NCBI GenBank assembly: GCA_002707835.1
Contig: PANZ01000010.1
Span: 31,526-95,525, forward strand
Length of the DNA: 64,000 nucleotides
Origin: Chloroflexota bacterium
GTDB taxonomy: Bacteria; Chloroflexota; Dehalococcoidia; UBA2979
Reading direction: 5' to 3'
The notes under the pieces were generated by a model. It was not told where the DNA came from. It did no database searches and worked only from the letters and a program-made list of their open reading frames with translations. Every line of letters starts with the position of its first letter. Position 1 is the stretch's first letter. Shown here piece after piece: positions 1 through 56,370 of this stretch. Made by a program: the position numbers and the translations under genes.

Positions 1-2875
1 ATATCGAAATACACTAAAGATTGCAGAACAAGTTGACATCTCACTTGATTTTGCCCGAACACTTCTTCCCGATTCAGGTGTTCCAGAAAACATCACACCT
101 TATGAATATTTACGTCAATTATGTATGGAGGGTTTGCATCGCAGATATCCCAATCTAACCGAACAGCAAACTCAAAGGTTGGATTATGAATTGAATATTA
201 TTGAACAAACAGGGTTTTCAGAATATATGCTGATTGTTCGAGATTTAGCACTATTTGCCAGGAAGCAAAAGATTCCTATGGGTGTAAGAGGATCCGCAGC
301 AGCGTCAATAGTTTTATATACATTAGATGTAACCGATATAGAGCCGACAGGTTACGGACTTGTTTTTGAAAGATTCTTAAATCCGGAACGTATTTCGATG
401 CCTGATGTGGATTTTGATTTTGCAGATGATCGACGTGAAGAGATCATTCGCTATGCGTCGGAAAGATATGGTAGAGATAAAGTTGCACAGATATGTACTT
501 TTGGAACTCTAGGTGCGAAAGCAGCAATTAGAGATACAGGTCGCGCACTAGGTGTGCCACTAAGTGAAACAGATCGATTAGCTAGGATGATTCCTGAGCA
601 ATTAAATATAACTATTGATAGTGCACTTGAAAAATCCTCAGAATTGGCTGAGATTTATACGAGAGATCCTGCCAGCAAAGAGCTAATCGATACTGCAAGA
701 AGTTTGGAAGGAGTCGCTCGACATGCTTCAACTCATGCAGCCGGTGTAGTTATTTCAAGACAGCCATTGATGGATGTTGTTCCATTGCAACGACCGACTG
801 GCGTTAAAGATCAAGATGCGTTGCCTACAACTCAATATGCTATGGCAGATGTTGAGAAGATTGGATTGCTGAAAGTTGATTTTTTAGGGTTGACCAATCT
901 TACTATTTTAGGAAAAGCGGTAAAGATCATAGCTGAATCAAAGGGCGAAGAAATTGATCTTACTAAATTACCGGATGGTGACAAGCTTACGGCAGAATTG
1001 TTGGCTAGCGCTGAAACGTTTGGTGTTTTTCAAATGGAATCGGCAGGGATGAGACGTTATGTTGCGGAATTACGACCAGAGAATATAGGAGAGCTTGCAG
1101 CTATGGTTGCTTTATTTCGACCTGGCCCTATGGAACATATTCCGCGATACATTGATGTTAAATTCGGAAAAGCAGAAGCACATTATCCACATGAAGATCT
1201 TGCCAATATTTTGGATGAAACAAATGGCGTGATTACATATCAAGATCAAGTTTTACAGATTGCCAGGCAATTCGCTGGATATACATTGGGTCAAGCTGAC
1301 GTTATGCGTAAAGCCATGGGTAAAAAAATTCCTGAAGTAATGCTACAGGAAAGACAGGGGTTTATTGAAGGTTCGATCGCTCAAGGGTATGAAAAGGAAA
1401 CTGCTGAAATACTTTTTGACCTGTTTGAACCATTTGCTGGGTATGCATTTAACAAAGCACATGCTTTTTCATATGCAACAATTGCTTACCAGACTGCCTA
1501 TTTAAAGGCTCATTATCCGTTGGAGTATATGACAGCGGTTTTAATGGCAGCGGGCGGTTCTCAAGATCGATTAGCAATGGCTATAAGAGAATGTAAGAGA
1601 TTAGATATTGAGGTTCTTCCTCCAGATATCAATCGTTCAGAGGCTAATTTTTGCATTGATCAACAACATGGTGGTTTTGGTATTCGTTTTGGCCTGGCGC
1701 AAATTAAGAATGTAGGTGATGCCGGAATTAAGAAGTTAATCGATGAACGTAGGTGCGATGGTGACTTTCTTTCAATAGATGATTTTGTCAGTCGGATTAA
1801 TCCGCGGGATGTTAACAAGAGGGTAATTGAGGCATTAGCAAAATCAGGTGCATTAGATGCGTTTAGTGATCGAGGTAAACTTATTGACGGGATTGATAGG
1901 CTAATACAGGTCGCCCAAGAGCAGTTTAAAATTCGAGAAACGGGACAAACATCGATGTTCGATCTGTTAGAAGATGAACAAACTCTGCAGGCTATTTCTT
2001 TAGATTCTTCTGAGATTGTTGAGCGTCAACTTTTGGTATGGGAGAAGGAATATCTAGGTACATATCTTTCGAATCATCCATTTCAAGAAATCTCCAGTAA
2101 TGTTAATCAATATGTAACTACACAAATGGTAGATATTGATGCATCTAGATCGGGAACTGAAGTTGTGATTGCGGGTTGGGTTACTAATGTACGCTCTCTA
2201 GTAACGAGACAAAATAAACAGTTTGCAATTGTAACGATGGAAGATTTTACAAATAGTATCGACTTAACAGTGTGGCCAGAACTGTATGAAGAGAACCGGG
2301 ATTCGATTGCTACTGATATTGCCTTGGTAGTAAAAGCGAAGATTCGATCACGTGATGGTCGATTGAATGTTGTTGCAGATCGAATTTTCATTTGCCCTGC
2401 AGAATTATCTCTAGAAAACAGAGATCAATTAGAACAATTAAGTATGAAAAACAATAGGAAGAGGGATCACTTTAGTGTAAAAGCAGAGCATACACGGATA
2501 GATAAGGATCCAATTACGCTAAAAGCCATAAAGACTTCTGATGCAGTTGAAACAGGACAGTTTAATGGAGATGGACAACAGAGAAAATTACGTATTGTTG
2601 TTGAAGAAACAACTGATGAAAATGCTGATGTCCGTCGATTAAGAAAACTATGTACAATTTTAGATCCTTACAGTGGTGATCTTCCTGTAGAACTTGTTAT
2701 CCAGCGTCGAGACGGAACAAAAGTGAAATTTACTCGCGGGACAGTGAATGAACGTTCGCTCGATACGATTGTTTCGCAGACTCGCATGCTATTAGGTGTG
2801 TTGGGTATTGTGGAAGAATTTACAGGTCTAGAGTCTGGATTATTTAACAATGGTTTGGCTGCTGCGAGTGGGTAG
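1..2875 (+). CDS. dnaE: DNA polymerase III alpha subunit (DnaE), 5'-truncated by the window edge
   Basis: The frame is open from base 2 with no stop (…IAEQVDISLDFARTLLPDSGVPENITPYEYLRQLCMEGL…), so the gene begins upstream of the window. The translation shows Pol III alpha palm/fingers and C-terminal OB-fold regions (e.g. GLLKVDFLGL, FNKAHAFSYA). Confidence 0.9.
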   Translation, partial: YRNTLKIAEQVDISLDFARTLLPDSGVPENITPYEYLRQLCMEGLHRRYPNLTEQQTQRLDYELNIIEQTGFSEYMLIVRDLALFARKQKIPMGVRGSAAASIVLYTLDVTDIEPTGYGLVFERFLNPERISMPDVDFDFADDRREEIIRYASERYGRDKVAQICTFGTLGAKAAIRDTGRALGVPLSETDRLARMIPEQLNITIDSALEKSSELAEIYTRDPASKELIDTARSLEGVARHASTHAAGVVISRQPLMDVVPLQRPTGVKDQDALPTTQYAMADVEKIGLLKVDFLGLTNLTILGKAVKIIAESKGEEIDLTKLPDGDKLTAELLASAETFGVFQMESAGMRRYVAELRPENIGELAAMVALFRPGPMEHIPRYIDVKFGKAEAHYPHEDLANILDETNGVITYQDQVLQIARQFAGYTLGQADVMRKAMGKKIPEVMLQERQGFIEGSIAQGYEKETAEILFDLFEPFAGYAFNKAHAFSYATIAYQTAYLKAHYPLEYMTAVLMAAGGSQDRLAMAIRECKRLDIEVLPPDINRSEANFCIDQQHGGFGIRFGLAQIKNVGDAGIKKLIDERRCDGDFLSIDDFVSRINPRDVNKRVIEALAKSGALDAFSDRGKLIDGIDRLIQVAQEQFKIRETGQTSMFDLLEDEQTLQAISLDSSEIVERQLLVWEKEYLGTYLSNHPFQEISSNVNQYVTTQMVDIDASRSGTEVVIAGWVTNVRSLVTRQNKQFAIVTMEDFTNSIDLTVWPELYEENRDSIATDIALVVKAKIRSRDGRLNVVADRIFICPAELSLENRDQLEQLSMKNNRKRDHFSVKAEHTRIDKDPITLKAIKTSDAVETGQFNGDGQQRKLRIVVEETTDENADVRRLRKLCTILDPYSGDLPVELVIQRRDGTKVKFTRGTVNERSLDTIVSQTRMLLGVLGIVEEFTGLESGLFNNGLAAASG

Positions 2876-2944: not shown

Positions 2945-3931
2945 ATGAGAGAAGAAATATTCGATCAGACTGATTTTAATGACTCCATGAAAGATCTCGA
3001 GATCATTCGTGAAGGCTTTACTAGTGTAATCTTTGGCCAGAGCCAACTTATAGAACGTGTAATCATTACGTTGTTAACCAACAACCACTGTTTAATTGAA
3101 GGTGTTCCTGGCCTTGCAAAAACGCTGACTGTACAGACATTGGCTAGTGTTTTTGATTTAGAATTTACGCGCGTGCAATTTACTCCAGATTTATTACCTG
3201 CTGATATAACAGGGACTATGATGTATGATCCCGGTCAAGGTCTATTTAATCCACATTTCGGGCCGGTTTTTACAAATATACTTTTGGCTGATGAAATCAA
3301 TCGTGCACCTGCTAAAGTTCACTCTGCCTTATTAGAGGCGATGCAAGAACAGCAAGTTTCTATGGGAGGGCAAAGTTATACTCTTCCGAAGCCATTCATG
3401 GTACTTGCCACACAGAATCCAATTGAGTATGAGGCGACATATGCATTACCTGAGGCTCAATTAGATAGGTTTATGCTTAAAATTGTCATTGACTATCCAA
3501 CACAAGCAGAGGGTCGAGAAATTTTAGATGCTTCATTAAATTATGATTTTCGAATGGTTGAGAGAAAAATTAATATCGATTCTCTAAACAAACTGTGCGA
3601 TATCGTGCGGAAGATCGTTATTGATGAATCGATTAGGGAGTATATATTGCGTATTGTGCATGCATCACGAAATCCTTCAGACTATGGTTTATCGAGCATA
3701 GAACCGATGATTGATTATGGAGCCTCTCCACGCGCTGCTACTTTTTTGGCGAAGGGATCACAGGCCTTGGCTTTCTTAAATGGTAGAGAATATGTAACAC
3801 CAGATGATGTTAAGGCATTGGCTCCAGATGTTTTACGACATCGGTTGGTTACTAGCTATGAGGCAGATGCAGCACAGATCACGGTAGAAGAATTGATTAG
3901 AACACTCCTAGAGCATGTGAATATAGCTTGA
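2945..3931 (+). CDS. MoxR-family AAA+ ATPase
   Basis: Walker A GVPGLAKT is present, together with the MoxR hallmarks FTPDLLPADITG and LADEINRAPAKVHSALLEAMQE. Length is about 320 aa. Confidence 0.85.
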   Translation: MREEIFDQTDFNDSMKDLEIIREGFTSVIFGQSQLIERVIITLLTNNHCLIEGVPGLAKTLTVQTLASVFDLEFTRVQFTPDLLPADITGTMMYDPGQGLFNPHFGPVFTNILLADEINRAPAKVHSALLEAMQEQQVSMGGQSYTLPKPFMVLATQNPIEYEATYALPEAQLDRFMLKIVIDYPTQAEGREILDASLNYDFRMVERKINIDSLNKLCDIVRKIVIDESIREYILRIVHASRNPSDYGLSSIEPMIDYGASPRAATFLAKGSQALAFLNGREYVTPDDVKALAPDVLRHRLVTSYEADAAQITVEELIRTLLEHVNIA

Positions 3932-3944
3932 ATATGAGTGGCAA

Positions 3945-4871
3945 ATGTTAAATTGGCAAAAAGATCATGTACAGACTTCTTTGAATGACTTGGATGAAGA
4001 TTTTATATCTTCACTGAATATCAAGATGAAACAACTAGAGTTACGTTCTCGTAATCTTGCATCATCAACTTTAAGAGGAGATTATCGGGCAAGTTTCCAT
4101 GGGAGTGGTGTCGAGTTTGCAGAATCTAGAGAATATATTTCCGGAGATGATACAAGGTTTATTGACTGGAATGTCACTGCAAGAATGGGCAACACGTGGA
4201 TTAAGCGATACGTGGAGGAAAGAGACCTGACAATTATTTTGGCTGTAGATACCTCAGCTTCTCAATTGGTTGCAGGAAGGCAGAATGGTCGAATTGGTGC
4301 TTCTGCAGAATTGGTGGCATTGATTAGTTTTCTCGCAGTTGAGAATCATGATCGAGTAGGCTTGATGCTCTTTGATAAGGAAGTTAATGAATATATCAAA
4401 CCTCAACATGGTGAAAAACACGCACACAGATTAGTTCGAACAGTGTTAGATCAGAAATATTTTGCCCTAGAGACTTGTATTACAGAAGCATGCGACCGTC
4501 TGACCAATGTACTTAGAAAAAAGTCGATAATTTTTTTGCTGTCAGATTTTACTAATTTAGAAGATCTTGGAAGCTTGCATAGAATGTCAAAACGCCATGA
4601 TGTAATAGCACTAGTCCTTACTGACCCCGTTGATTTTGTATTACCAGAGGTAGGACTTATACAAGTTCAGTCCATAGAAGATGGTTATTCAACCATCATT
4701 GATACCACAGATCCTGTCGTCCGAGAAAGGTATAGATTGCGTGCTAAGAATTTTTCTGAGTTGAGGAGTCAAAAATTTTCGTTGGCAAATGTGGGTGAAG
4801 TCAAAATTGATGTGACGCAAGACTTATTAAATCCGTTGAGTAATTATTTTAAACTGCGATCGGTAAGGTAA
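3945..4871 (+). CDS. DUF58-family protein (MoxR partner, degenerate VWA-like)
   Basis: It lies immediately downstream of MoxR. The motif ILAVDTSASQ (DxSxS-like) is typical of DUF58 proteins. The stop overlaps the next start (TAATG). Confidence 0.7.
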   Translation: MLNWQKDHVQTSLNDLDEDFISSLNIKMKQLELRSRNLASSTLRGDYRASFHGSGVEFAESREYISGDDTRFIDWNVTARMGNTWIKRYVEERDLTIILAVDTSASQLVAGRQNGRIGASAELVALISFLAVENHDRVGLMLFDKEVNEYIKPQHGEKHAHRLVRTVLDQKYFALETCITEACDRLTNVLRKKSIIFLLSDFTNLEDLGSLHRMSKRHDVIALVLTDPVDFVLPEVGLIQVQSIEDGYSTIIDTTDPVVRERYRLRAKNFSELRSQKFSLANVGEVKIDVTQDLLNPLSNYFKLRSVR

Positions 4872-5842
4872 TGAAAAAGCCACATGGTTGGTTGGTAGTG
4901 GCAATGGTAGTTATTTATGGTATTACTTTTAGTAGTATACATGCGCAAGAATATCCAGATTATGACGTTAGTGTTAGAACAAATCCGAACGAAGTTACAG
5001 TTGGAGATTTAATAGACATTACAGTAGAAATTTCACATAAAGAAGATGTTATTTTTACGATAACTGAACCAATTTTACCGTCGGGTATGGATATAGTATC
5101 GAGTGAAGATCAAATTAGTATTTTCGATCGAACGAGTGGAGATTTAGTAATATCGAGTCGGACTTTTAAAGTCGCTTCGTATGTACTCGATCTTCAAGCG
5201 AGTGGATACATTGATTTGTTATGGGTCGATTCAAAATTAGGCACAGGTAAAGTCAGCATAGATCTTCCTCAAATTAATATATATCCAACAAGAAATAAAG
5301 ATGATGGGTCCCTACGTCCATTAGCGCCTTTGTTTAGAGAGGAAGGCTTTTATAGTTTTAATTATCAAGAATTGCTAGCGATTAGTGGATTTTTCCTTTT
5401 GATAGCTTATTTGTTACTTCGTATTAGAAAACGGACAAGTAAAGAAGGTACATTCCCTATACAACACGATGAAGATATTGCAACAAATCGATTAAGTTTA
5501 TTAAGAGGAGTGAGTTTAGACTCTGTAAAAAATTATCGAGAATTTTATCAGTCGATAGATAGAATCATTAGGCAATATATTTCATCAAGATATAACATGC
5601 AGGCATCTTCGTTAACTGTAAAAGAATTAATTGTACTGGGAGATCTTGCCCAGATTGACAAATGGCAACTTCGTTTGATTAGAGATTTACTTAATCGCTG
5701 TGATGAAGTTATTTATGGCAATATTTTGCCTGATCCAATTTTAGCTGACCGTGATCTTACTATTGCATACGAGATTATAGAGTTAAATCGTGGAAGTGTC
5801 TCGGGCGAGATAACGACTAGGGATATCGAACATGAGATTTGA
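4871..5842 (+). CDS. Hypothetical exported/membrane protein of the Bat-like operon (possibly BatD-like)
   Basis: It has an N-terminal signal-like hydrophobic segment, one internal TM segment (LLAISGFFLLIAYLLLRI), and is translationally coupled on both sides. Confidence 0.45.
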   Translation: MKKPHGWLVVAMVVIYGITFSSIHAQEYPDYDVSVRTNPNEVTVGDLIDITVEISHKEDVIFTITEPILPSGMDIVSSEDQISIFDRTSGDLVISSRTFKVASYVLDLQASGYIDLLWVDSKLGTGKVSIDLPQINIYPTRNKDDGSLRPLAPLFREEGFYSFNYQELLAISGFFLLIAYLLLRIRKRTSKEGTFPIQHDEDIATNRLSLLRGVSLDSVKNYREFYQSIDRIIRQYISSRYNMQASSLTVKELIVLGDLAQIDKWQLRLIRDLLNRCDEVIYGNILPDPILADRDLTIAYEIIELNRGSVSGEITTRDIEHEI

Positions 5843-6782
5843 AAACATCGAATTTTTATGGCTTATTCCGATAGCATTCCTTTGTGTATTGTGTATTAGT
5901 TATATTGCTGCACCTCGGCATAACTTATGGATATCAAATGTAGAATTAATTCGAGGAGAGTTTAAATCAAATTGGAGGATACGTTTATGGTGGTTACCCT
6001 CTTTTTTAAAGGGGATAGTCATTTTATTGTTAATTTTTGCGCTGGCACGACCACAATTTGGATTGAAACGGATAGAAATCCCATCGGAGGGAATAGACAT
6101 TGTAATAGCACTGGATGCTTCTAGCTCGATGGACTTAGTTGCAAACAATATAAAAGGTGAATCACGCTTGGAGCAAAGTAAAAATGTTGTGGTTGATTTT
6201 GTCCAAAATTTTGCAGGTAACCGTATTGGATTAATTATTTTTCAGTCACGTACTTTGACTTTATCCCCATTGACCTACGATCATAACGCCCTTCGAAGGC
6301 AAATCGAATCAATAGAAACGGGAATGATCGACGATGGAACGGCCATTGGTCTAGGCATTATGGAGGCTTTGTCATTGCTTAAGAATTCTCCTGCAAAAAG
6401 TCGTGCGATTATTTTGCTGACTGATGGTCAGAATAATGTAGATGTTGTTTTACCAATACAGGCTTCGCGTGTTGCTGAAACTTTGGGAATCAAAGTGTAT
6501 ACAATTGGATTCGTTGGACAAGATTCTGTAAGTGGAATGACGATCGATACACAAATGCTGCACTTGGTCGCAGAGAGAACGGGTGGATTTTTTTACAATG
6601 CGAAGACAGTTGATGAATTGACAGCTGCCTATCAAGATATTTCTAAATTAGAAAAATCGAATTTGGCAGACATTACTTATTCTGTAGAGATGGATATCGC
6701 GCAATATCTTATTTGGTGCGCATTTGCATTAGTGGTGTTTGGATTTGTTTTTAAAAAGTTTTTTCTGCGGGTGTATCCATGA
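5832..6782 (+). CDS. VWA-domain membrane protein (BatA-like)
   Basis: N-terminal TM helices are followed by a VWA MIDAS motif IDIVIALDASSSMD and LLTDGQNN. Confidence 0.75.
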   Translation: MRFENIEFLWLIPIAFLCVLCISYIAAPRHNLWISNVELIRGEFKSNWRIRLWWLPSFLKGIVILLLIFALARPQFGLKRIEIPSEGIDIVIALDASSSMDLVANNIKGESRLEQSKNVVVDFVQNFAGNRIGLIIFQSRTLTLSPLTYDHNALRRQIESIETGMIDDGTAIGLGIMEALSLLKNSPAKSRAIILLTDGQNNVDVVLPIQASRVAETLGIKVYTIGFVGQDSVSGMTIDTQMLHLVAERTGGFFYNAKTVDELTAAYQDISKLEKSNLADITYSVEMDIAQYLIWCAFALVVFGFVFKKFFLRVYP

Positions 6783-8536
6783 ATTTTGATACTCCCATAT
6801 TCTTATTGGCTCTGATCTTACTACTGCCTTTTTATCTGTGGAGTAATCACTTGATTAGGGTTCGCAGGAGATATTTTGATATTGACGGTCAGAACCAGTT
6901 AATACGTTCAAGGTTTATTAATAAAACATATCAAGTAAAAAATTTTCTCTTAGTTTTATGTCTAGCGTTTCTAATAATTTCAATGGCAGGGCCAAGTTGG
7001 GGTAGTGTTGAACGTCCATATAAAAAGCAAGGGATAGATGTTGTGTTTGCGCTTGATATATCACGATCGATGACTGCTACGGATGTGATTCCTTCGAGAT
7101 TAGAAATGAGTGTTTTTGAACTTCAAAAGCTATTGCAACATCTGGAAGGCAATAGAGTGGGTTTGGTCCTTTTTGCAGGTAATGCAATTGAACGTGCACC
7201 TCTAACTTTGGATATCGATGCACTTTCCCAATTAATTGATCAAGCACAATGGGAGTTTCCATTAGTAAAGTCAGGGACTGATTTAGATGATGCTGTTTCA
7301 AAAAGCCTAGCACTATTGAGTGTGGAAGATTCAGCAAGCACACAATCGATAGTAATTATTTCCGATGGAGAAGATATAAAAGGTGTCAATTCTGAATCAA
7401 TTCAACAAGCTAACCTTGCCGGTATCGCTATATATACGGTAGCAGTTGGCACTGAATCAGGTGGCTTCATTCCGAACGATCTTTCAGGGGGAGGTGTCAC
7501 AAAAGTTGATGTTGAAAAGCTTAAAGGGATTGCCGAAATTACAGGAGGTATTTTTTTTCAGGTACAAGATATTGAATCAATAATATATGAATTACACAGA
7601 GGTGAAATTACTGAATTTAAGAACATCAATTATACGATGCCTAATGATATTAGCAGCTGGTTTGTGTGTATTGTTGTTTGCTTATTAGTTATTGATTTGG
7701 GATTAAATCATCGACTGTTTTCTAGTAAAAATCTATTCACATGGGGGATGGCTATTGTAATTATCAGTGTCATTCTTGGTGTGGGATGTAGTGATTCAAA
7801 ATGGTCAAGTAGTGTAAAAGCAGGGAATCAAGAATACCTAGAAGGAAATTTTGATTTAGCTCTTTCTCATTATCTTAATGCTAGAGAACTAGATAACGAA
7901 GATCCATTGTTGGCATATCATTTATCTAATGTATTGCATTATTTAGGAAGAGATGATGAAGCGGCAGTTGTGGCCCAACAAGCTTTACTGAAAACTGATG
8001 ATGTTAGTTTGAAATATTTAATACACTATGCGATGGGTACCTATGCATTTGAAAGAGGGATGCTCGAGAGCGCTCGAGATCATTATATTCGATCTCTACA
8101 GTTACAGCCGACCCATAATTATTCAAAGCAAAATTTGGAATTGGTCTTAAGTTTACTTATGACAAGAGAAATTACACAACAAGAGTTAAGTCAGCCTTCT
8201 GGATCAGAGAACGCAGTGCCACAAAATGAAATTAATACCAATGGAGATCAATTAACTAATGCACAGTCGATTACAACTGCTAATGATATTACTGGGAAGG
8301 ATACGGGAGGATTAAATACAAATACGGAGAAACAAGATCCAGTTGAAGAAAATCAGATTGAAACAGAAGATCTTATATCTGAGGTTCAAAAATCGTTCCA
8401 AAGTGAATTAATTGATGATTCAAATGTTTTAACCAGATTAGAAGCTAATAATCTAGTGCTTTTAATACAAAGATGGAATGAACTTCAAAGAGAAGAGGAG
8501 CTGTCTCAAGAATTATTTAGCATTGATGAAAGGTAA
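6779..8536 (+). CDS. VWA-domain plus TPR-repeat membrane protein (BatB/BatC-like fusion) with an acidic low-complexity tail
   Basis: VWA motifs IDVVFALDISRSMTA and IISDGEDI are present, then a TM helix, then TPR-like repeats (YLEGNFDLALSHYLNA…). The start overlaps the previous gene by 4 bp (ATGA). Confidence 0.7.
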   Translation: MNFDTPIFLLALILLLPFYLWSNHLIRVRRRYFDIDGQNQLIRSRFINKTYQVKNFLLVLCLAFLIISMAGPSWGSVERPYKKQGIDVVFALDISRSMTATDVIPSRLEMSVFELQKLLQHLEGNRVGLVLFAGNAIERAPLTLDIDALSQLIDQAQWEFPLVKSGTDLDDAVSKSLALLSVEDSASTQSIVIISDGEDIKGVNSESIQQANLAGIAIYTVAVGTESGGFIPNDLSGGGVTKVDVEKLKGIAEITGGIFFQVQDIESIIYELHRGEITEFKNINYTMPNDISSWFVCIVVCLLVIDLGLNHRLFSSKNLFTWGMAIVIISVILGVGCSDSKWSSSVKAGNQEYLEGNFDLALSHYLNARELDNEDPLLAYHLSNVLHYLGRDDEAAVVAQQALLKTDDVSLKYLIHYAMGTYAFERGMLESARDHYIRSLQLQPTHNYSKQNLELVLSLLMTREITQQELSQPSGSENAVPQNEINTNGDQLTNAQSITTANDITGKDTGGLNTNTEKQDPVEENQIETEDLISEVQKSFQSELIDDSNVLTRLEANNLVLLIQRWNELQREEELSQELFSIDER

Positions 8537-10888
8537 TAAATTACGAAGTTTGACGATCGGTTTTGCAATAATTCGTTGGAGTAGAATTTTTTTAATTTCG
8601 TTGTAACTGGAGATTAAAGCTACTTCATTAGATGTATAAGTCGTCTCCGGATTTCCATATCGTACTGCATTGTAGGAAGTCGCTAACACTCTAAAATGAG
8701 ATGCATTGCCTACGCTTTTGGAAATTAAATCAGACCACTCTAAAGGTGTTTGATTTGCAATCAGGGGCAGTCCTGCCCATTTGGCTAAGTACTGTATTTT
8801 CGCCCAATAACGTTGATTAGGAGGTACTTTTCTAAATAAATATAACCATATTCCCCAAATTATGAAGGTTATTGCGATTAAGGTTAATCCAAGAACAGCG
8901 CAAAAAATTAAGACTTGGAGTATGTTTTTCACAGTAAGAATATTGCTTTCTGTAGAATCGCCGATCTCAGAGATACCTAATGGACTTGAAGTATTTAATT
9001 CATCAAGAAGTTCATCATCATCATCTTCTTCCTCGAAAGGAAGTATTTCTGTCCCAAGTGCTAAGCTATCGGGTGACCAGTTAGGTTGGTTAGTACGTTG
9101 AACGAGAGGGCGATTGGGCGTGGGGTTAAATTCTATCCATCCAAGTCCTGGGAAATAAACTTCAGGCCAAGACCAACTATGTATCTCGCTAATTTTATAA
9201 GACTTTGATGAAGTATCAAATGAATTTGTGTCGAGAGTAAATCCTGTAGCTATTCGTGAAGGGATTCCTATTGTTCGAAGCAATATTGTCATTGCAGAAG
9301 CATGATGATCAAAATAGCCACGTTTTTCTGTGAAAAGAAAATTCTCGATTACATCTGAACGTGGTGGTGGTCTATTAACATCAAGTGTGTAGGGATAATT
9401 ACGTCTTAAGTGATCTTCAATCTTTCGAGCTGATATGTAGGGATGCTCAGCAGTACTTGCAATATCTGTGGCCAACATCTTAATGCTTGTAGGCAGACTG
9501 TTAGGTAATTGTAAATAATGTTCTTTTATATGTGATGGATAATCTAGCGAAGTGCTAAGTATGGATTGAATTGGTGCAACTGAAATTGCACCTACGGTGG
9601 TGTAGGTCATGTTTGGTTTTAATCGATCTTTTGGAGTTACTCCGATGATGTCATTGGATTGAGTATTGATTACGTTTTTTGTATTTATATCAGAGGCGAT
9701 AGGTTCGCCGTGAAAAAGGAGACGTCGGTTAGGTATTGGGTTTAGTATTGTGACAGTCAAAGATCGTGGTTCGCGTAATTGTGATTGAGTTAAAGATGTT
9801 CCAAATAAAGCGGCATCTATAGTAGTTCCACTTGAGTTAACGAGGATTGTGTCTGAAGTACGCCAACCAAAACCTGTATATTCATCATAAATAGCGGCTT
9901 TAAAATTACCAGGCGATATGGTTTCAATTTCCATGAGATCTGTATTGCTGAGGCTGATAGATGCTTGTAGGGGCATTGTTTCACCAAAGCTATGGACTGG
10001 GAGGTCGCGTTTTGATGAAACGCCCGCAAAGACTCGATTGAACCACTCGAATCTTTCTTGAAGAGGTGAGGTTACGTTTTCAAAGTATGTGTCTACAGGT
10101 TTCCAATTGTTGAAAGTAGGTGTTAACCAGGCGAATGTTACTAGTATAAATGAAGTTGCTATTCCTAAAAAAATGATTTGTATGGATATGTGCTCTGGCC
10201 AAGGTCGACGTTCGACATGCCATTTTTCCAGTGAACGCATGAAATTGATTTGTACTATTAATAGGATTGCTATAAATAAAAAAATTATTAGTTCAACATT
10301 TTTTGAATAGGAAAGGTAGGAAATATTCGTCAGTAAAACAAATCCAGGTGGAAGTAATGCTAGCCAAGGATTTTTCCATCGAATTGTTGATAGAACTGCA
10401 TAGAAAGAGATCAAGCTAACTGTCAGGATTAGAATAATTACAAAAGGTAGTGGATCATTTGAAATCCCTCCAGTTACAACAGCGGAATACCAATCGTAGA
10501 TTCGGAATAAGAATTCATTGATATGTAAGTAAGGTTGATTTGCTGTTGCAGGATTAGTAGTTTTTAGATTCCAGACGATCGTGCTTAATGACAAGATAAT
10601 TGTCGTAATTGTTCCGACATACAGACTTTTGGAGAAGTATTTGATCTGAAAAATGATCGTAATTAATCCAGCGACGAAACCAATCAATGTGGATATATAA
10701 ATAGAGGGCATCTCATCAACCCAGTTGGCATTTTCTAGTGAATGGGTCATAGCCAACAGCGCTATTAACAAAAGAAATATACTGAACCAAGAGTAACCAT
10801 GCAGGAAATGCTCTAATATTGAATTTGGTTGTTCATGGCGATCAGTATCACTAGGACGAAATAAGTGTTCTAGTTCTGAATTAATCAT
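8513..10888 (-). CDS. Transglutaminase-like membrane protein (TgpA/DUF3488-type) with apparent substitutions of the catalytic Cys and Asp
   Basis: The N-terminal half is multi-TM. The core region FLFTEKRGYFDHHASAMTILLRTIGIPSRIATGF followed by IHSWSWPEVYFPGLGWIEFNPT aligns to the TgpA motifs GFCEHxA…GIPAR, HAWxEV and GWVRVDPT. This gene overlaps the convergent BatB-like gene by 24 bp. Confidence 0.8.
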   Translation of the reverse strand: MINSELEHLFRPSDTDRHEQPNSILEHFLHGYSWFSIFLLLIALLAMTHSLENANWVDEMPSIYISTLIGFVAGLITIIFQIKYFSKSLYVGTITTIILSLSTIVWNLKTTNPATANQPYLHINEFLFRIYDWYSAVVTGGISNDPLPFVIILILTVSLISFYAVLSTIRWKNPWLALLPPGFVLLTNISYLSYSKNVELIIFLFIAILLIVQINFMRSLEKWHVERRPWPEHISIQIIFLGIATSFILVTFAWLTPTFNNWKPVDTYFENVTSPLQERFEWFNRVFAGVSSKRDLPVHSFGETMPLQASISLSNTDLMEIETISPGNFKAAIYDEYTGFGWRTSDTILVNSSGTTIDAALFGTSLTQSQLREPRSLTVTILNPIPNRRLLFHGEPIASDINTKNVINTQSNDIIGVTPKDRLKPNMTYTTVGAISVAPIQSILSTSLDYPSHIKEHYLQLPNSLPTSIKMLATDIASTAEHPYISARKIEDHLRRNYPYTLDVNRPPPRSDVIENFLFTEKRGYFDHHASAMTILLRTIGIPSRIATGFTLDTNSFDTSSKSYKISEIHSWSWPEVYFPGLGWIEFNPTPNRPLVQRTNQPNWSPDSLALGTEILPFEEEDDDDELLDELNTSSPLGISEIGDSTESNILTVKNILQVLIFCAVLGLTLIAITFIIWGIWLYLFRKVPPNQRYWAKIQYLAKWAGLPLIANQTPLEWSDLISKSVGNASHFRVLATSYNAVRYGNPETTYTSNEVALISSYNEIKKILLQRIIAKPIVKLRNLLPFINAK

Positions 10889-10890
10889 AA

Positions 10891-12156
10891 TTAATCACCA
10901 GTCGTTGATTTAAATTTATGGGGTATTTTTCTTGAAAGTGCGTTAGTAAGATCAGTCCCAGCTGCTATGTCGTAGTGAAGTATTCCATTTTGTTCTAATG
11001 ATTTATACACATTATCGGAATTAATAAATCCACCGAAGCTTTCACCATTTAGTGTGATTGCTGTTACTTGAATGCCGCGATTATTAAGGCCTCTAAGTTC
11101 CGTAATCCATTGAGTATTAGTGGAGGGAGTAATAGCGATAACTGTTGAGTGTCGTCCAAATTTTGGGGATTGATCTAAAATTAATTGTTCCATCGTGACG
11201 GATCCTATGGCTTTTGCAAGTGCCAGTGATTCAAGGATACGAGTGAAGTGTGAATTTCCTTTTTCAGGTTTATCTACCTTAATAGACGAGTCAAAAAATG
11301 CAAGACCAACCGACCTGTTGGTTTGTATAAAATATCGGGCGAGGCCTGCACAGATTTGTGCAGATATTTCTTCAGTAGAATTTAAATTGAATCCAGTGTG
11401 ATGTGTTTTATCTAAATCTAAGAGTAGACATATTTCAGAAGAGGGGTCTATTTCAAATTCTTTGACTATTGTACGACCCTTTCTTGCGGTACTTGGCCAA
11501 TGAATTCTGTTGAAGGCATCGCCAGGTATATAATCTCTTAATCCAAAGATGTTCGGTGTAATATTATGGCTACGTTTACGAAAATGTCCTTCACCAGGGA
11601 GGTTTGAGGATGGTGTATTAAAGTAGTTTATTTCAGGGGTGTAAGGGTATATCAGTAGTGTTGATTCACTACCAAAAGTTTTCGAAAACTTAAAAAAGCC
11701 AAAAGGGTCTGTAGCTGTAACAGTGAGAGGGCCTAGTGTATACAGGCCACGGAGTAGTGCCTTTGTATTATAAGACCAGACAGTAGTACCTCGAGATGGA
11801 AGGGTGATTGCTCGTTTTGATGTGTGTGAAGGAATAGTCGATTGGTCAGATAGTTCCAGCCAGATTTTTGGCAGTATTGAGCTGGATCGAAGGGTGATTC
11901 TTCCTCTTATGGATTGTCCTTGTGTTGCTCGTTGAGTTTCTCTAACAATTTCCACATCGAGGCTGTTAATCATGGATTTTGTCCATAAATAAAGTAAAGG
12001 GAGTGCAATGATAATTATGTAAAAAAGTCTAAATAGTAACCAAAATCCCGTAGACAATCCCAAGAGTAAACATATTATAGCCAAAGCTACGGCTATGGAT
12101 GGGCTGGGGAACTTTAGACAAGTCTGTTTTAAGTTTGAAATAGATCTTGTTATCAT
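10891..12156 (-). CDS. DUF58-family protein with N-terminal TM helices
   Basis: It sits between MoxR and the TGase-like gene on the minus strand, has the DUF58-like core (…EICLLLDLDKTHH…), and two N-terminal TM segments. Confidence 0.7.
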   Translation of the reverse strand: MITRSISNLKQTCLKFPSPSIAVALAIICLLLGLSTGFWLLFRLFYIIIIALPLLYLWTKSMINSLDVEIVRETQRATQGQSIRGRITLRSSSILPKIWLELSDQSTIPSHTSKRAITLPSRGTTVWSYNTKALLRGLYTLGPLTVTATDPFGFFKFSKTFGSESTLLIYPYTPEINYFNTPSSNLPGEGHFRKRSHNITPNIFGLRDYIPGDAFNRIHWPSTARKGRTIVKEFEIDPSSEICLLLDLDKTHHTGFNLNSTEEISAQICAGLARYFIQTNRSVGLAFFDSSIKVDKPEKGNSHFTRILESLALAKAIGSVTMEQLILDQSPKFGRHSTVIAITPSTNTQWITELRGLNNRGIQVTAITLNGESFGGFINSDNVYKSLEQNGILHYDIAAGTDLTNALSRKIPHKFKSTTGD

Positions 12157-12164
12157 TGCATTTG

Positions 12165-13127
12165 CTAATTACTACCACGGGCGCGATCTCCGGGTACCCT
12201 TACTCGTCCGATTATTTCATCAATAATTTGATCATTGCTGACACCGCGTATGTGCGCACTAGGATCGATGATTATTCGATGTCCCAAAGTTGGATAAGCT
12301 AAAATCTTTACGTCATCTGGTTGGACAAAATCCCGCCCTTCAAGCATGGCGTATGCTTGAATTGATCGCATTAATGCCAAAGATCCCCTTGGTGAGGCAC
12401 CGAGATAGATATTTTCATGCGAACGAGTAGCATTTACCAAATCAACAATATACTGCTTCACTAAAGGATCGATGTAGATATTCTTAACGTTTTGTTGTAG
12501 TTGTTTGATTTCTTCAGGAGTTGTTATTGGAACAAGGTTTTCAAGCGGATGTTTTGATTGCTGGGAATCCATAATATTAATTTCTTGTGCAGGGGTAGGG
12601 TATCCAAGATTGATATGGATTAAAAAACGATCTAACTGTGCTTCAGGTAAAGGAAAAGTTCCTTCATATTCGATAGGATTTTGAGTTGCGATTACCATAA
12701 ATGGACTGGAAAGATAATGGGTATCCCCGTCCACTGTAATTTGGTTTTCTTCCATGGCTTCAAGTAATGCAGATTGTGTTTTAGGGGTGGCTCGATTAAC
12801 TTCGTCCGCTAGGACAATTTCAGAGACAATTGGCCCTGCGTGAAATTCGAACTCACCTGTTTGTTGCTTATAAATTGTGACACCAGTGACATCAGAAGGC
12901 AGTAGATCAGGTGTGAATTGTATACGTGAGAATTGACATCCTGTAGATTTTGCTATCGATCTGGCAAGTATTGTTTTACCAACTCCCGGAACATCTTCAA
13001 TAAGTAAGTGACCATTACACAGCAATGCAATTAGGGAGAGCTTAATTTCATGTTCTTTACCAAGAATTACAGTGGTAATATTATCGATAATTTTCTGGGT
13101 CGTTAATTGTGGATTATTCAATTGCAC
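12165..13127 (-). CDS. MoxR-family AAA+ ATPase (paralogue of 2945..3931)
   Basis: GVGKT, FTPDLLPSDVTG and LADEVNRATPKTQSALLEAMEE are present. It is clearly paralogous to the first MoxR. Confidence 0.85.
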   Translation of the reverse strand: MQLNNPQLTTQKIIDNITTVILGKEHEIKLSLIALLCNGHLLIEDVPGVGKTILARSIAKSTGCQFSRIQFTPDLLPSDVTGVTIYKQQTGEFEFHAGPIVSEIVLADEVNRATPKTQSALLEAMEENQITVDGDTHYLSSPFMVIATQNPIEYEGTFPLPEAQLDRFLIHINLGYPTPAQEINIMDSQQSKHPLENLVPITTPEEIKQLQQNVKNIYIDPLVKQYIVDLVNATRSHENIYLGASPRGSLALMRSIQAYAMLEGRDFVQPDDVKILAYPTLGHRIIIDPSAHIRGVSNDQIIDEIIGRVRVPGDRARGSN

Positions 13128-13196: not shown

Positions 13197-14138
13197 TCAA
13201 ACCTTGACTGCAACAAGACACGTCCAATTTGAATCACTTAATATATCGATTGTTTCAAAATTAAGTTGTTCGAGTTTGGATTTGATTTCAGGTAGATGAT
13301 CATTAATGAATCCACTCAATATCGCTAATCCTTCATTTTTCAGGGCATCTTTTATTAGTGCGATTAATTCGAGGATAGTGCTAGTTGAGATATTAGCGAT
13401 AATAATGTCGGCTAATGATGATTGTTGAGGGAATTGGTCTGGCCAGCTCGATCCCAATGTTCCATGGGCTGCCAGTATTTTCGGGTGAGTATAATTTATT
13501 TTTGAATTTTTGATTGTTATGTCAATGGCATTATTATCGATATCAAGGGCGTACGCAGATTTTGCACCAAACATTATTGCCCCAATGCTTAATATGCCTG
13601 AGCCGCATCCAAGATCGATTATAGTATCTTGTTTTTGAGTGTATCTTTCTAGTGCAATTAGACAAAGTTGACTAGTGGGGTGCTGTCCTGTACCAAAGGC
13701 AGCTCCAGGATCAAGAGTAATTTTTGTTTCCGAATGCCTTGGATGATATTCAATCCAGGAAGGGCAGACGACAATATTTTCTCCGATACGCTCTGTTTTA
13801 TAATATTTTTTCCATTCATTAGCCCAATCATCATTTTCAATTATGCGGTAGTGAATACGAGGGATCTTAGCTGTTATAGGTAGTGCATTTAACATTTTTC
13901 TAAAACTTACACGTTCTCTAGTTGTAAAAGGTTTTTCTACATAAGCACGAATAATGGAAGGTTCATTTCGATAAGTAAATCCAAAATCGACATCAGTAAG
14001 GATCTCAATTGCTGGTTCAATAGTGACACCATTTGTGCTTATGCTTGAAAGGAATTCACTGATAATCGGAACATCTGATGGGGTAGACTTAATTGAAATT
14101 TCAAACCAGGAAAAGGTGCTAGAAACATTGCTAAGCAA
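13197..14138 (-). CDS. prmA: Ribosomal protein L11 methyltransferase
   Basis: [15 protein letters not shown] and the SAM motif [11 protein letters not shown] are present. It overlaps dnaJ by 8 bp, matching the Firmicutes order dnaJ-prmA. Confidence 0.85.
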
Positions 14139-17755: not shown

Positions 17756-18783
17756 TAGCGGACCTCGTACATTAGTGCACTCATTAATTCAGCTATATAT
17801 CTAACACGTGGGATAGATCTAGGATAATCCATGCGCTTAGGGCCCAGTACTGCGACCGTGCCATTTGAAATGCGATCGCCAAAAGAGCTTATAATTACAC
17901 TCCATTCACGCATTAATTCATCCCCATGTTCTTCACCAATAAGAACATGCGTTGTTCCTGGTTCTACTTTAGGCGAATGCTCAATCAACATACGAAGGTG
18001 ATAAGCATCGAGATTCTCAATCGCCTCACGCATTTGATTGACATCCGTAAATTCTGGTTGATTTAAAACAGTACTTAACCCATCTAGATAGGCCTCATGT
18101 TGTCCTTGTTGATTGATGGAAAGTTGAAAAATAGCATCGATAATAATATTGTCATCAATTTTGTTGTTTATATTGATAGATTGCCGACCTGATTGCGGGG
18201 AAGGGTCTTTCAAATTTTGATTTAGTGTTTCTGCATATATGTTGAGTTCATTTTGTAGATAGGGTCGAGATAGGTTAAGAATTTTTTGCCCTATAAATCC
18301 ATTATTCATTACAACCACAAGCATTACCGATGTACCGTTTAGTTCTACGAGCTGAACGTGTTTGAGAGATGTTGTTTCCGCAGAGGGTCTTATTACCATT
18401 GCGATTCCACCGACAGTTGTGGAAAGAATAGTTGCAGTTAGACTTAACCACTCATCTAAACCACCATTGACTTGGTGCAATTGATGCTCAATAGTTCGCA
18501 TTTCATCAAAACTAAGAGGTTTTTCATCCATCAAGGATTCAACATAATGTCTGTATCCTTGATCGGAGGGAATGCGACCTGCTGAAGTATAAGGGTGAGT
18601 AATATATCCATTTTCTTCTAATTGTGCTAACTCATTACGTATAGTTGCACTAGATAAAGGGAGCTCTTGCCGACTGGCAAGCAGTCTTGAGCTGACAGGA
18701 GTCGCAGACTCGATATATTCGTCTACGACTAATTCCAAAATCGATTCTTGTCTTTGTGTTAACACATTTCCCTCTATTGGCAC
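17755..18783 (-). CDS. hrcA: Heat-inducible transcription repressor HrcA (GTG start)
   Basis: The N-terminal winged-HTH region is RQESILELVVDEYIESATPVSSRLL. It is the first gene of the dnaK operon, and CIRCE elements lie upstream. Confidence 0.9.
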   Translation of the reverse strand: MPIEGNVLTQRQESILELVVDEYIESATPVSSRLLASRQELPLSSATIRNELAQLEENGYITHPYTSAGRIPSDQGYRHYVESLMDEKPLSFDEMRTIEHQLHQVNGGLDEWLSLTATILSTTVGGIAMVIRPSAETTSLKHVQLVELNGTSVMLVVVMNNGFIGQKILNLSRPYLQNELNIYAETLNQNLKDPSPQSGRQSININNKIDDNIIIDAIFQLSINQQGQHEAYLDGLSTVLNQPEFTDVNQMREAIENLDAYHLRMLIEHSPKVEPGTTHVLIGEEHGDELMREWSVIISSFGDRISNGTVAVLGPKRMDYPRSIPRVRYIAELMSALMYEVR

Positions 18784-27693: not shown

Positions 27694-29565
27694 TTAAATC
27701 CCTAGTGCGTCAGCCACATCACTGAGTCCAAGTGAAATTAGTAGGTCACGATTAGGTGCACTAGTTTCTTGATCCCACCCTGCTTCATCCCACCATTCTC
27801 TTTTCATTGTTTCTAAATCGATTGTGAATCCTTCATGTGGCCCTGATTGTTGTGGTGGGTTGCCCAGTAATCTACCTGGTACAACACGTGCTCCAGGATT
27901 ATTACCGTGTTTTACCGCAAAGGCCATGCGTAAATTAGCTATTCGTTCTCCAACATCATCTAACTCTTCGAAAGTAGTATCCCAGCCAGTAACTAAATTT
28001 ATCCAATCAGGGATTCGATTGGTAGGAGCCATTGTATAAACGAAGTAACACATACCAGCGGAGTTCATAATATGAGCTTGTTCATGAGCCTTTTTATGAA
28101 GGGGTCCTCTACCAGAAAATTGATTTTTATCAGCTGGTGGTTCGGGCATAGTAGGGAATTTTGAACTTTTACCTGGTGACCAATTAGTGTGCCTTGCAGG
28201 AGTAGGATCTAGAGCATATGAAGCCGCGAATCCAATTTCTTTTTTAGGATCATGCATAGGAGGTTCTTCACCATCTATTGCTGTTATGAATTCTTCAGCT
28301 GCGGGTCCAATACGTTGGGCCGCAATAGTAGAACCATCTGCTAACAGGTCACCTATCCCTTGTTCACGTCTACCAATTTTGTGAAGTATGTCTAAAACAC
28401 TAGTAGCGTTTCCCCAAGTAAGTTCTATTCCGTCAGTATCTTCTTTTGTCAGAAGGCCATTTTCGTAGCATTCTGTTGCAAAAGAGATGGTAGCTCCAGC
28501 AGAAATAGTGTCTAATCCATATTCATTACACCAATGATTAATGGCAATCATTGCATCAGTATTATTAACCCCATTCATTACACCAAAAGCACCTAAAGTC
28601 TCATACTCTGGTCTGTGTGTATGTTGAGGAAATGCAAATTCCCCTCGATCGCTCCCATCTACTGACTCTGCACCACAAGCTACGGGGCAATGCCAACATG
28701 CATATTTTTTCTCCATACTTTCATTGAAATTTGGCCCATTCATTCCTGACATATCCATTGTGTCGACAAGGTTGATTATTCCTACGCCTCCCCAATTAAG
28801 TACAGGAGCGTCTCCATTGATTGCTGAATTAGCAGTTATTCCTGTAGTGCCAAAAGTTGTAAAAAACTCTTTTGATTTTTTGTTGAACTCACCAAGGCTT
28901 TCTTTAACTGCGAGTATAACTTCTTTATTTTGTGCCATAATTTTTTTAGTGGGTTTCACCACAACAGCTTTAAGTTTCTTTGAACCCATTACTGCACCAA
29001 CTCCAGACCGTGCAGCAAGCCTACCGCGTTCATTAGCTACCCCGGCCATGGTACTAAGATTTTCACCAGCAGGACCTATCAATGCGACACTAATTTTTTT
29101 CCCTAGTTCTTCCTTGAATTGGTCTTCAACTTCAATGGCTAGTCCGCCCCAATAACTTGTTGCGTCTCTTAATTCAATAGTGTCATCGTCAATATATAGG
29201 TATACTGGGCTCTCGGATTGCCCGCTAAAAAGAATGCCGTCGTAACCTACAAATTTAAGCATGGGGCCAAAATCCCCTCCACAATTCGCATCACCCCAAC
29301 CACCATTTTTTGGTGATTTTGTGACTACCTGGAATCTTTGGCCAAATAAAGGTGTTCCAGTCATTAAGCCAGGAAAGAATCCGAGAATATTATCTGGGCC
29401 AAGTGGATCTGCGTCAGCAGGAATACGTTCAAAAAGCAGACGTGCCCCAAGGCCACTCCCTCCAAGTAGTTCTCTGTAAGTATGTTCTTCTATTATTTCT
29501 GTCTCTATTTCCTTGGTTGTAAGGTTTACATTGAGGATTCGACCATTGAAAGCTATATTTTCCAT
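27694..29565 (-). CDS. Aldehyde:ferredoxin oxidoreductase family (tungstopterin enzyme, AOR/FOR-like)
   Basis: The N-terminal AOR_N domain reads GRILNVNLTT…ELLGGSGLGARLL, and the C-terminal domain carries the conserved Cys-containing 4Fe-4S/pterin-binding region (…CWHCPVACG…). Confidence 0.8.
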   Translation of the reverse strand: MENIAFNGRILNVNLTTKEIETEIIEEHTYRELLGGSGLGARLLFERIPADADPLGPDNILGFFPGLMTGTPLFGQRFQVVTKSPKNGGWGDANCGGDFGPMLKFVGYDGILFSGQSESPVYLYIDDDTIELRDATSYWGGLAIEVEDQFKEELGKKISVALIGPAGENLSTMAGVANERGRLAARSGVGAVMGSKKLKAVVVKPTKKIMAQNKEVILAVKESLGEFNKKSKEFFTTFGTTGITANSAINGDAPVLNWGGVGIINLVDTMDMSGMNGPNFNESMEKKYACWHCPVACGAESVDGSDRGEFAFPQHTHRPEYETLGAFGVMNGVNNTDAMIAINHWCNEYGLDTISAGATISFATECYENGLLTKEDTDGIELTWGNATSVLDILHKIGRREQGIGDLLADGSTIAAQRIGPAAEEFITAIDGEEPPMHDPKKEIGFAASYALDPTPARHTNWSPGKSSKFPTMPEPPADKNQFSGRGPLHKKAHEQAHIMNSAGMCYFVYTMAPTNRIPDWINLVTGWDTTFEELDDVGERIANLRMAFAVKHGNNPGARVVPGRLLGNPPQQSGPHEGFTIDLETMKREWWDEAGWDQETSAPNRDLLISLGLSDVADALGI

Positions 29566-56249: not shown

Positions 56250-56370
56250 TAGCGCTCCTTGTGCAGTAATATGTATAAAAGTAGTACGAGCTGGATCATG
56301 CTAATTGTAATCTTATAATTCTAAATAATCAGTGTTAGCAGGTAAATTACTTCTACATTTACGAGGTTTT

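Follow-up and report, generated by a model that had tools for sequence, protein, structure and literature searches.

TgpA of Pseudomonas aeruginosa shows transglutaminase (TG) activity in vitro and its gene is essential in this organism; its TG domain is periplasmic, and it is encoded in an operon with the order MoxR (PA2875), DUF58 (PA2874) and TgpA (PA2873) (Milani et al., PMC3507681). Modules consisting of a MoxR (MRP) protein, a DUF58 protein and a transglutaminase-like (TGL) protein are widespread, this essential tgpA included, and the main published model regards the TGL protein as a peptidase. In detail, the MoxR-vWA-TGL (‘YebA-like’) operon has been predicted to encode machinery for ATP-dependent protein degradation close to the membrane: MoxR would unfold the substrates, and the TGL domain, placed in the cytoplasm, would cleave them (Zhang & Aravind 2012, PMC3495828). 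Here, we describe a module of this type from a 64-kb window (the whole stretch of DNA that was analysed) of a marine Dehalococcoidia (Chloroflexota) genome with about 38% GC. Its TgpA-type membrane protein, in the following simply the TG protein, has all three catalytic residues replaced.

Like TgpA (PDB 6g49/6g4h), the TG protein has a polytopic N-terminal transmembrane (TM) region, an ectodomain composed of a beta-sandwich and a Transglut_core, and a further TM helix, and it is found in the same operon context. Unlike TgpA, whose Cys-His-Asp triad is intact, it carries Phe-Trp-Asn, has no Cys in the domain and comes from Chloroflexota. With the MoxR-vWA-TGL operon the locus shares the same three components in the same order and a membrane-embedded TGL protein. 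However, its TGL domain has no triad and is probably extracytoplasmic, and thus the degradation model as stated does not apply to the clade of catalytically dead proteins to which the TG protein belongs (the dead clade).

Two further groups are worth comparing. TG-fold proteins whose catalytic residues have been lost are known from eukaryotes, namely protein 4.2 (EPB42), Rad4/XPC, CC2D2A/MKS6, Cyk3 and FBXO21 (PMC3495828, PMC10318531). They share with the TG protein a transglutaminase/papain-like fold and the loss of catalytic residues, and they work as scaffolds binding peptides, proteins or DNA; protein 4.2 was also a weak structural match of our model in Foldseek. They differ in that they belong to unrelated lineages and architectures, are soluble, have no MoxR or DUF58 partners and carry other replacement residues. 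In the case of the Bifidobacterium PFNA cluster (pkb2-fn3-aaa_atp-duf58-tgm), the TGM protein, presumed to be a cysteine protease, has been proposed to act in signalling or ligand recognition (PMC8430577). This cluster contains a similar module of MoxR(MRP), DUF58 and a membrane TGM protein, but the module in the window has no adjoining kinase, FN3 or FHA genes. Pseudoenzymes are common and inactive TG folds are known in eukaryotes; what is added here is a dead clade of TgpA proteins linked to MoxR and DUF58 in bacteria, of which no description was found in the searchable literature.

The TG protein is a member of the transglutaminase-like superfamily, both by homology and by its papain-like core fold. 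Its match to PF01841 (E 5.3e-21; 75.4 bits, with a cutoff of 23 bits) spans positions 2-108 of the 108-position profile, and no NCBIfam model matched it. The best PDB relative in a single-sequence phmmer search was the periplasmic domain of P. aeruginosa TgpA, 6g49 (E 2.8e-10). When a family profile of 48 sequences was used, residues 326-595 of the TG protein aligned to residues 69-309 of 6g49 with an E value of 3.9e-33, so that the region N-terminal to the TG core is also homologous to the periplasmic domain of TgpA. For structural comparison, an AlphaFold2 (AF2) model of the TG protein with a mean predicted local distance difference test score (pLDDT) of 81, and above 90 in the core, was used as the query. 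Its top match in Foldseek was again the TgpA periplasmic domain (E 5e-14, TM-score of 0.71 normalised to TgpA), with an identity of about 16-17% in the structural alignment. The identical TG protein is found on at least eight contigs, Tara Oceans marine metagenome assemblies included, and the three shown come from three different samples.

The replacement of the triad follows from the register of these alignments. In both HMMER alignments, pairwise and profile, the TgpA segment ‘sGFCaHYAgAM’ lies opposite ‘rGYFdHHAsAM’, bringing the catalytic Cys to F526; ‘fdaHaWvEyw’ lies opposite ‘ihsWsWpEvy’, bringing the catalytic His to W572; and ‘GWLsvDPT’ lies opposite ‘GWIEFNPT’, bringing the Asp to N588. 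In the AF2 model, F526 caps helix 526-539, and W572 and N588 follow on, or directly after, the two strands that come next, as is canonical for a papain-like fold. Where an enzyme of this family would have its Cys-His-Asp/Glu triad, at the N-terminus of a helix and on successive strands, F526, W572 and N588 were found. A first-pass annotation of the window had proposed Cys to Phe at the nucleophile and Asp to Asn in GWIEFNPT, and both readings hold in the pairwise and the profile alignment to TgpA, no profile alignment placing a Cys at the nucleophile position. It had also considered the catalytic His to be kept within IHSWSWPEVY, which is wrong. The candidate concerned, H570, was rejected as it is two residues upstream of the catalytic column and its own column is variable (H, N, D, R, Q, E or L among relatives, with H just in the query and in the 99%-identical P0001).

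An alternative thiol triad could also be excluded. C663, which lies within a TM helix, is the only Cys in the whole protein, and because the soluble domain (residues 253-658) is without any Cys, no thiol-based alternative triad exists. Judging from its sequence, the TG protein is thus unable to carry out thiol-based transamidation, deamidation or proteolysis.

Regarding the spread of this loss, a homologue search in 5.8 billion proteins gave 108 homologues, which were aligned with MAFFT. Their named sources are Dehalococcoidia or Chloroflexi metagenome-assembled genomes (MAGs) and Tepidiforma, with one distant match from Acidimicrobiales; the Tepidiforma homologues P0088 and P0090 belong to the F-Y-N type. 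The dead pattern was observed in 99 of 99 homologues, down to about 29% identity: the Cys column contains F, with one S, the His column W, F or Y, and the Asp column N, with one S. A C-H-D/E triad (states are given in the order nucleophile, His and acidic position) was found only in the most distant of the 108 homologues (P0101, P0104-P0108). When 1.84 billion cluster representatives were scanned exhaustively with HMMER, 30,124 relatives were obtained at E <= 1e-3, and the triad states were tallied in the nearest 150 clusters (50% identity). Homologues with E <= 1e-30 number roughly 1,600. About 55 of these 150 are dead types (F-W-N 15, F-Y-N 17, F-F-N 6, F-F-S 2, plus rarer variants), 57 are C-H-E and 28 are S-H-E, and a handful show A-H-N, A-H-E, G-H-D, G-H-E, F-H-D, C-H-D or other rare states. 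A scan of GTDB with one genome per species gave at least 599 relatives, of which the best 80 loci, nearly all from Chloroflexota, were examined. Dead types account for 12 of these 80 loci; they are labelled Dehalococcoidia, Chloroflexota or Tepidiforma, except for one MAG deposited as Thermoflexus hugenholtzii. The Cys-less, non-catalytic TG fold with MoxR and DUF58 that the first-pass annotation had suggested is therefore borne out and goes further than proposed, as the whole triad is gone and the loss is fixed in a clade.

The thiol was also replaced in other ways. A separate Dehalococcoidia clade carries Ser-His-Glu (loci L013, L022, L030, L050, L052, L057-L060, L063, L079 and L080). Of these 12 loci, 10 have MoxR and DUF58 genes upstream; the MoxR match of L022 is on the opposite strand, and L030 has DUF58 only. 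The S-H-E proteins could be enzymes with a Ser nucleophile. ‘S-W-E’ intermediates that appeared in tblastn alignments were discarded as artefacts, since the multiple alignment reads S-H-E. Outside the F-type clade, the nucleophile Cys is replaced by Ala or Gly in P0159 and P0185 (A-H-N), P0160 (G-H-D) and P0226 and P0234 (G-H-E), and by Ala also in P0255 (A-H-E) and P0183 (A-L-N), so mostly with the His kept. Because these Ala and Gly replacements fall outside the F-type clade, the thiol was lost several times in the TgpA-like proteins of Chloroflexota. With its Cys independently exchanged for Ala, Gly or Ser in sister lineages, the family has, as read from the alignments, done without the thiol more than once.

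To describe constraint, 126 dead-clade sequences with a mean pairwise identity of about 0.42 were compared with sets of C-H-E and S-H-E sequences. At the nucleophile column, 98% of the dead-clade sequences have F, whereas all C-H-E sequences have C and all S-H-E sequences have S (100% each). At the His column, the dead clade has W, F or Y throughout and the other two sets have H; at the acidic column, N is present in 95% of dead-clade sequences, and E in 95-100% of those in the other two sets. The residue following the former nucleophile, D527, rises from 66-69% in the C-H-E and S-H-E sets to 98% in the dead clade. Cleft and scaffold residues common to active relatives (D512, R538, R545, W574, E576, G583, W584, F587 and P589) are conserved at 98% or more, and the three most conserved windows of the protein in the dead clade include residues 521-540 and 581-600. 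Invariant positions specific to the clade include H299, W171, N173 and W695. H299 (window positions 9992-9994, minus strand), located in the segment leading from the last N-terminal TM helix to the beta-sandwich, is 98% conserved in the dead clade, whereas relatives of the C-H-E and S-H-E types have S or R at this position.

Taken as a whole, the TG core surpasses every other region in conservation, and this in each of the three clades. Mean pairwise identities of the core are 0.52 (dead clade), 0.52 (C-H-E) and 0.53 (S-H-E), which corresponds to 1.25x (1.38x for deep pairs), 1.50x and 1.46x the whole-protein identity, the relative ratio thus being somewhat lower in the dead clade. On these alignments the TG core shows no sign of a relaxed, vestigial domain, and the replacement residues appear to be clearly under purifying selection. 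Enzyme-family homology, a lost triad, replacement residues conserved at 95-98% and a core as well conserved, in terms of identity, as in the Cys-bearing clades were found together here, which is what distinguishes a conserved pseudoenzyme.

Phylogenetic trees were constructed by neighbour-joining (NJ) only. The dead types group together as a single clade and the S-H-E types as a second one, and a few canonical C-H-E sequences of Dehalococcoidia are neighbours of both. With 200 bootstrap replicates and the three triad columns masked, the F-W-N subclade including the query was recovered with 100% bootstrap support, and the whole dead clade with about 70%. A stepwise loss in the order Cys, His and then Asp (F-H-D to F-Y-D to F-Y-N to F-W-N) would be consistent with the NJ tree, and is put forward only as a hypothesis because the basal place of the F-H-D / F-Y-D lineage has a bootstrap of only about 50%.

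The partners of the TG protein are retained. At the window locus the MoxR and DUF58 genes are adjacent to the TG gene, upstream of it and co-oriented, as in the three-gene MoxR(MRP)-DUF58-TGL module, and the co-oriented run that ends with the TG gene consists of PrmA (13197-14138), MoxR, DUF58 and TG, with gaps of 69, 8 and 2 nucleotides. Wherever a dead-type locus has upstream DNA (L001-L011), the same two genes immediately precede the TG gene in the same orientation, and they are also located upstream in most S-H-E loci; in many C-H-E loci of other Chloroflexota classes, MoxR and DUF58 were not found within 6 kb. The MoxR of the window is 61-68% identical to that of the full-length dead-type loci, and 57-60% identical over partial matches at contig ends. 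As to the start of the DUF58 protein, it is ambiguous: the 421-residue open reading frame (ORF) has two N-terminal hydrophobic helices (a TM hairpin), and public calls are of 360 residues without them. A co-variation of the DUF58 partner with the loss of the triad was considered and rejected, as the TgpA-linked DUF58 proteins examined are without DxSxS in dead, S-H-E and C-H-E systems alike.

Regarding topology, hydropathy and the positive-inside rule place the positively charged N-terminal loops 81-86, 168-173 and 217-233 inside. Because of this charge distribution, and because the TG domain of TgpA is periplasmic (PMC3507681), the TG protein is predicted to have about seven TM helices followed by domain 253-658 on the outside, an eighth helix (TM8) and a basic C-terminal domain on the inside. 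In the AF2 model the soluble domain consists of a beta-sandwich (about 300-436), the TG core (about 440-595) and a disordered acidic linker (about 600-650), the latter being the least conserved stretch of the protein. PF11992 (DUF3488) was unreported for the query at E <= 0.01, yet close homologues are annotated with it, P0003 (78% identity) among them. Near the C-terminus there was a weak match to DUF4129 (E 0.0078, 16.7 bits against a cutoff of 24.8 bits), a family (PF13559) that is recorded for many homologues.

Chemistry with the canonical residues is impossible in the TG protein, yet the module is kept under strong constraint, and therefore a non-catalytic role is favoured. With reasonable though limited confidence, we regard the TG protein as a conserved pseudoenzyme that serves a MoxR-DUF58 membrane complex as its binding or scaffold module outside the cytoplasm. 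This reading rests on the fold, the replacement of the triad, its clade-wide fixation and conservation, the retention of intact MoxR and DUF58 and the undiminished constraint on the TG core; from there, we infer the binding role and the coupling to MoxR-DUF58, as we do the topology. In such a mechanism, the old active-site cleft would have become a non-catalytic binding or scaffold surface for an envelope ligand, possibly a peptide or a cell-wall component. An aromatic pair would substitute for the thiolate-imidazolium pair, and the Asn could hydrogen-bond to the Trp indole or the Tyr hydroxyl. The TG protein would be the membrane-spanning part of a three-part machine, in which the cytoplasmic MoxR, via the membrane-anchored DUF58 adaptor and the C-terminal domain of the TG protein, may remodel or gate the complex from inside. 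The three-protein system of the dead lineage thus probably works by binding and not by thiol chemistry.

Several points weigh against a binding or scaffold role. In the dead clade, conservation is about equal in the TM region and the TG core, so that the decisive function might reside in the former. The strong conservation of F, W and N could reflect stabilisation of the fold by a hydrophobic plug and not ligand binding. An active TgpA paralogue might be encoded elsewhere in the genome, to which the observation that no dead-type genome occurs twice among the best 80 loci is a weak counter. Finally, the monophyly of the whole dead clade has moderate support (about 70%), and this in NJ trees only.

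In an alternative that is possible, though rather improbable, the TG domain is vestigial. Here, the function would lie in the membrane and C-terminal parts, either in anchoring or regulating MoxR-DUF58 or in a transport-like role of the DUF3488-type TM bundle. The TG domain would be a mere structural ectodomain, with F526 and W572 filling the cleft after catalysis became unneeded. Aromatic and Asn replacements are indeed as expected for the filling of a cavity, the TM window 181-200 has a conservation of 0.75 against 0.75 and 0.73 for the windows of the former active site, and R129, D145, R170 and N188 of the TM region are conserved in dead, C-H-E and S-H-E classes alike. A structural domain would however be expected to relax, and the TG core is instead the most conserved region of the dead clade, at an identity like that of the other two clades. 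The cleft-lining residues D512, R538, R545, W574, E576 and W584 are also still conserved at 98% or more.

It is unlikely that the TG protein is a neofunctionalised enzyme, with non-thiol catalysis by recruited residues such as H299 and conserved acidic residues. ‘Migrated’ catalytic residues are documented for pseudoenzymes (PMC10211241), and the clade-specific H299 and the increased conservation of D527 would suit such a scheme. Besides H299 and N588, no polar residue of the soluble domain is both invariant and clade-specific, the core offers no conserved Ser or Cys as a nucleophile candidate, and H528, H529 and H570 are all variable.

A dead paralogue that modulates a live one is a frequent role of pseudoenzymes, and canonical C-H-E TgpA-like genes do exist in some Dehalococcoidia (L043, L046, L064, L068). 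Regulation of a catalytically active TgpA paralogue in the same genome is nevertheless very unlikely here. No second Transglut_core gene was found in the 64-kb window, and among the best 80 loci, none of the dead-type assemblies, one of which is the complete 3.07-Mb chromosome OZ252250.1, is also represented by a C-H-E or S-H-E locus. The dead gene moreover fills the orthologous MoxR-DUF58 slot and is not an extra copy. An error of motif register, sequencing or assembly, or a decaying pseudogene, can practically be dismissed, given the intact ORF, the identical copies from different samples, the agreement of the register in pairwise, profile and structural comparisons and the conservation of the substitutions down to the most remote dead-type homologues.

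In a large, old and well-conserved lineage, the complete module has outlasted the replacement of all three catalytic residues. Together with the Cys to Ser, Ala or Gly exchanges in its sister lineages, the dead clade is a natural experiment indicating that the module in these bacteria needs no thiol chemistry, and it argues against a universal model of a ‘MoxR-fed thiol peptidase’. It also reveals a systematic annotation error, as public sources name the dead proteins ‘transglutaminase-like putative cysteine protease’. More speculatively, and with clear doubt on our side, Phe-Trp-Asn might form a new ligand pocket, and MoxR-DUF58-TgpA modules might in general be ATP-driven machines for binding or remodelling across the membrane, with a core function independent of covalent chemistry and with catalysis as an accessory that was discarded several times in Chloroflexota (Cys to Phe, Ala, Gly or Ser). 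In that case, what makes TgpA essential in Pseudomonas might be a non-catalytic role too.

Coordinates of the TG protein, its domains and key residues, and of the MoxR systems next to it (positions in the 64-kb window)
Feature	Position	Strand	Basis
TgpA-type transglutaminase-fold membrane protein, 791 residues, catalytically dead (F526/W572/N588)	8513..10888	-	intact ORF, Transglut_core, TgpA 6g49 match
N-terminal polytopic membrane region, residues 28-252, about 7 TM helices, DUF3488-like	10133..10807	-	hydropathy, positive-inside rule, AF2 helices 32-258
Large soluble domain, residues 253-658 (406 residues), putatively extracytoplasmic	8915..10132	-	AF2 secondary structure and pLDDT, TgpA profile alignment
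Transglut_core (PF01841), residues 471-589	9122..9478	-	Pfam; AF2 pLDDT >90
F526 (TTT), nucleophile Cys position, first residue of helix 526-539	9311..9313	-	pairwise, profile and multiple alignment, AF2
H570 (CAT), out of register (-2), unconserved	9179..9181	-	alignments
W572 (TGG), catalytic His position, on strand 571-579	9173..9175	-	pairwise, profile and multiple alignment, AF2
N588 (AAC), catalytic Asp/Glu position, just past strand 583-586	9125..9127	-	pairwise, profile and multiple alignment
Disordered, strongly acidic linker (EEEDDDDELLDEL...), residues ~600-650, from TG core to last TM helix	8915-9100	-	pLDDT <50
C-terminal TM helix (TM8), residues 659-684, holding the sole Cys, C663	8837..8914	-	hydropathy, AF2
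C-terminal helical domain, residues 689-791, putatively cytoplasmic	8516..8824	-	K+R 13 vs D+E 5
DUF58 (vWA-like) partner, without the DxSxS metal ion-dependent adhesion site (MIDAS) motif	10891..12156	-	PF01882 E 1e-18, motif alignment
MoxR-family AAA+ ATPase (AAA_3 + AAA_lid_2)	12165..13127	-	PF07726 E 1.6e-64; Walker A GVGKT and Walker B VLADE intact
Bat-like MoxR	2945-3931	+	
Bat-like DUF58, DTSAS MIDAS motif	3945-4871	+	
323-residue protein, no Pfam match	4871-5842	+	
BatA-like VWA protein	5832-6782	+	
VWA-TPR protein, overlapping the 3' end of the TG ORF by 24 nucleotides (8513-8536)	6779-8536	+	

A second, Bat-like MoxR system on the plus strand (2945-8536) converges on the TG gene. This convergent arrangement was also seen in L001, L002, L004, L006 and partly in L066, all of them dead-clade loci. 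No functional link between the TG gene and the Bat-like operon was deduced from this, since PrmA is equally syntenic and the gene order may simply be inherited.

The window as a whole is core chromosome, with genes for DnaE, DnaK, DnaJ, Rho, CTP synthase, a class I (Ile-type) tRNA synthetase and GroEL. Among wall genes it contains MurJ, a LysM-M23 peptidase and genes of the diaminopimelate (DAP) pathway, as well as a Mur-ligase-family protein that may act in cell-wall synthesis. MurJ, the LysM-M23 peptidase and the DAP-pathway genes point to a peptidoglycan wall, as far as can be judged from gene content, and argue against the idea that catalysis was lost for want of peptidoglycan.

A relation to ternary MoxR-vWA conflict or defence systems was also considered. 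Such systems are associated with beta-propeller or other sensors and with effector domains (Kaur et al. 2020, PMC7159879). This was rejected, as PADLOC gave no significant match to defence systems in the window, sensor and effector genes are missing, and the neighbours of the TG gene are housekeeping genes (PrmA, DnaJ, DnaK and an ORF that, by eye from its translation, reads like HrcA). A weak tblastn match at 18292-18663 (E 0.07), taken up as a candidate second TG gene, was spurious, as its ORF reads by eye like the repressor HrcA. A scan for promoters and terminators gave fewer promoter-like sites than in shuffled sequences and no terminator at the operon ends.

Elsewhere in the window, a 654-residue ORF on the plus strand (56332-58296) has no Pfam match at E <= 1e-5. 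On the minus strand, at 27694-29565, there is an aldehyde:ferredoxin oxidoreductase (AFOR_N + AFOR_C), a member of a family of tungstopterin enzymes.

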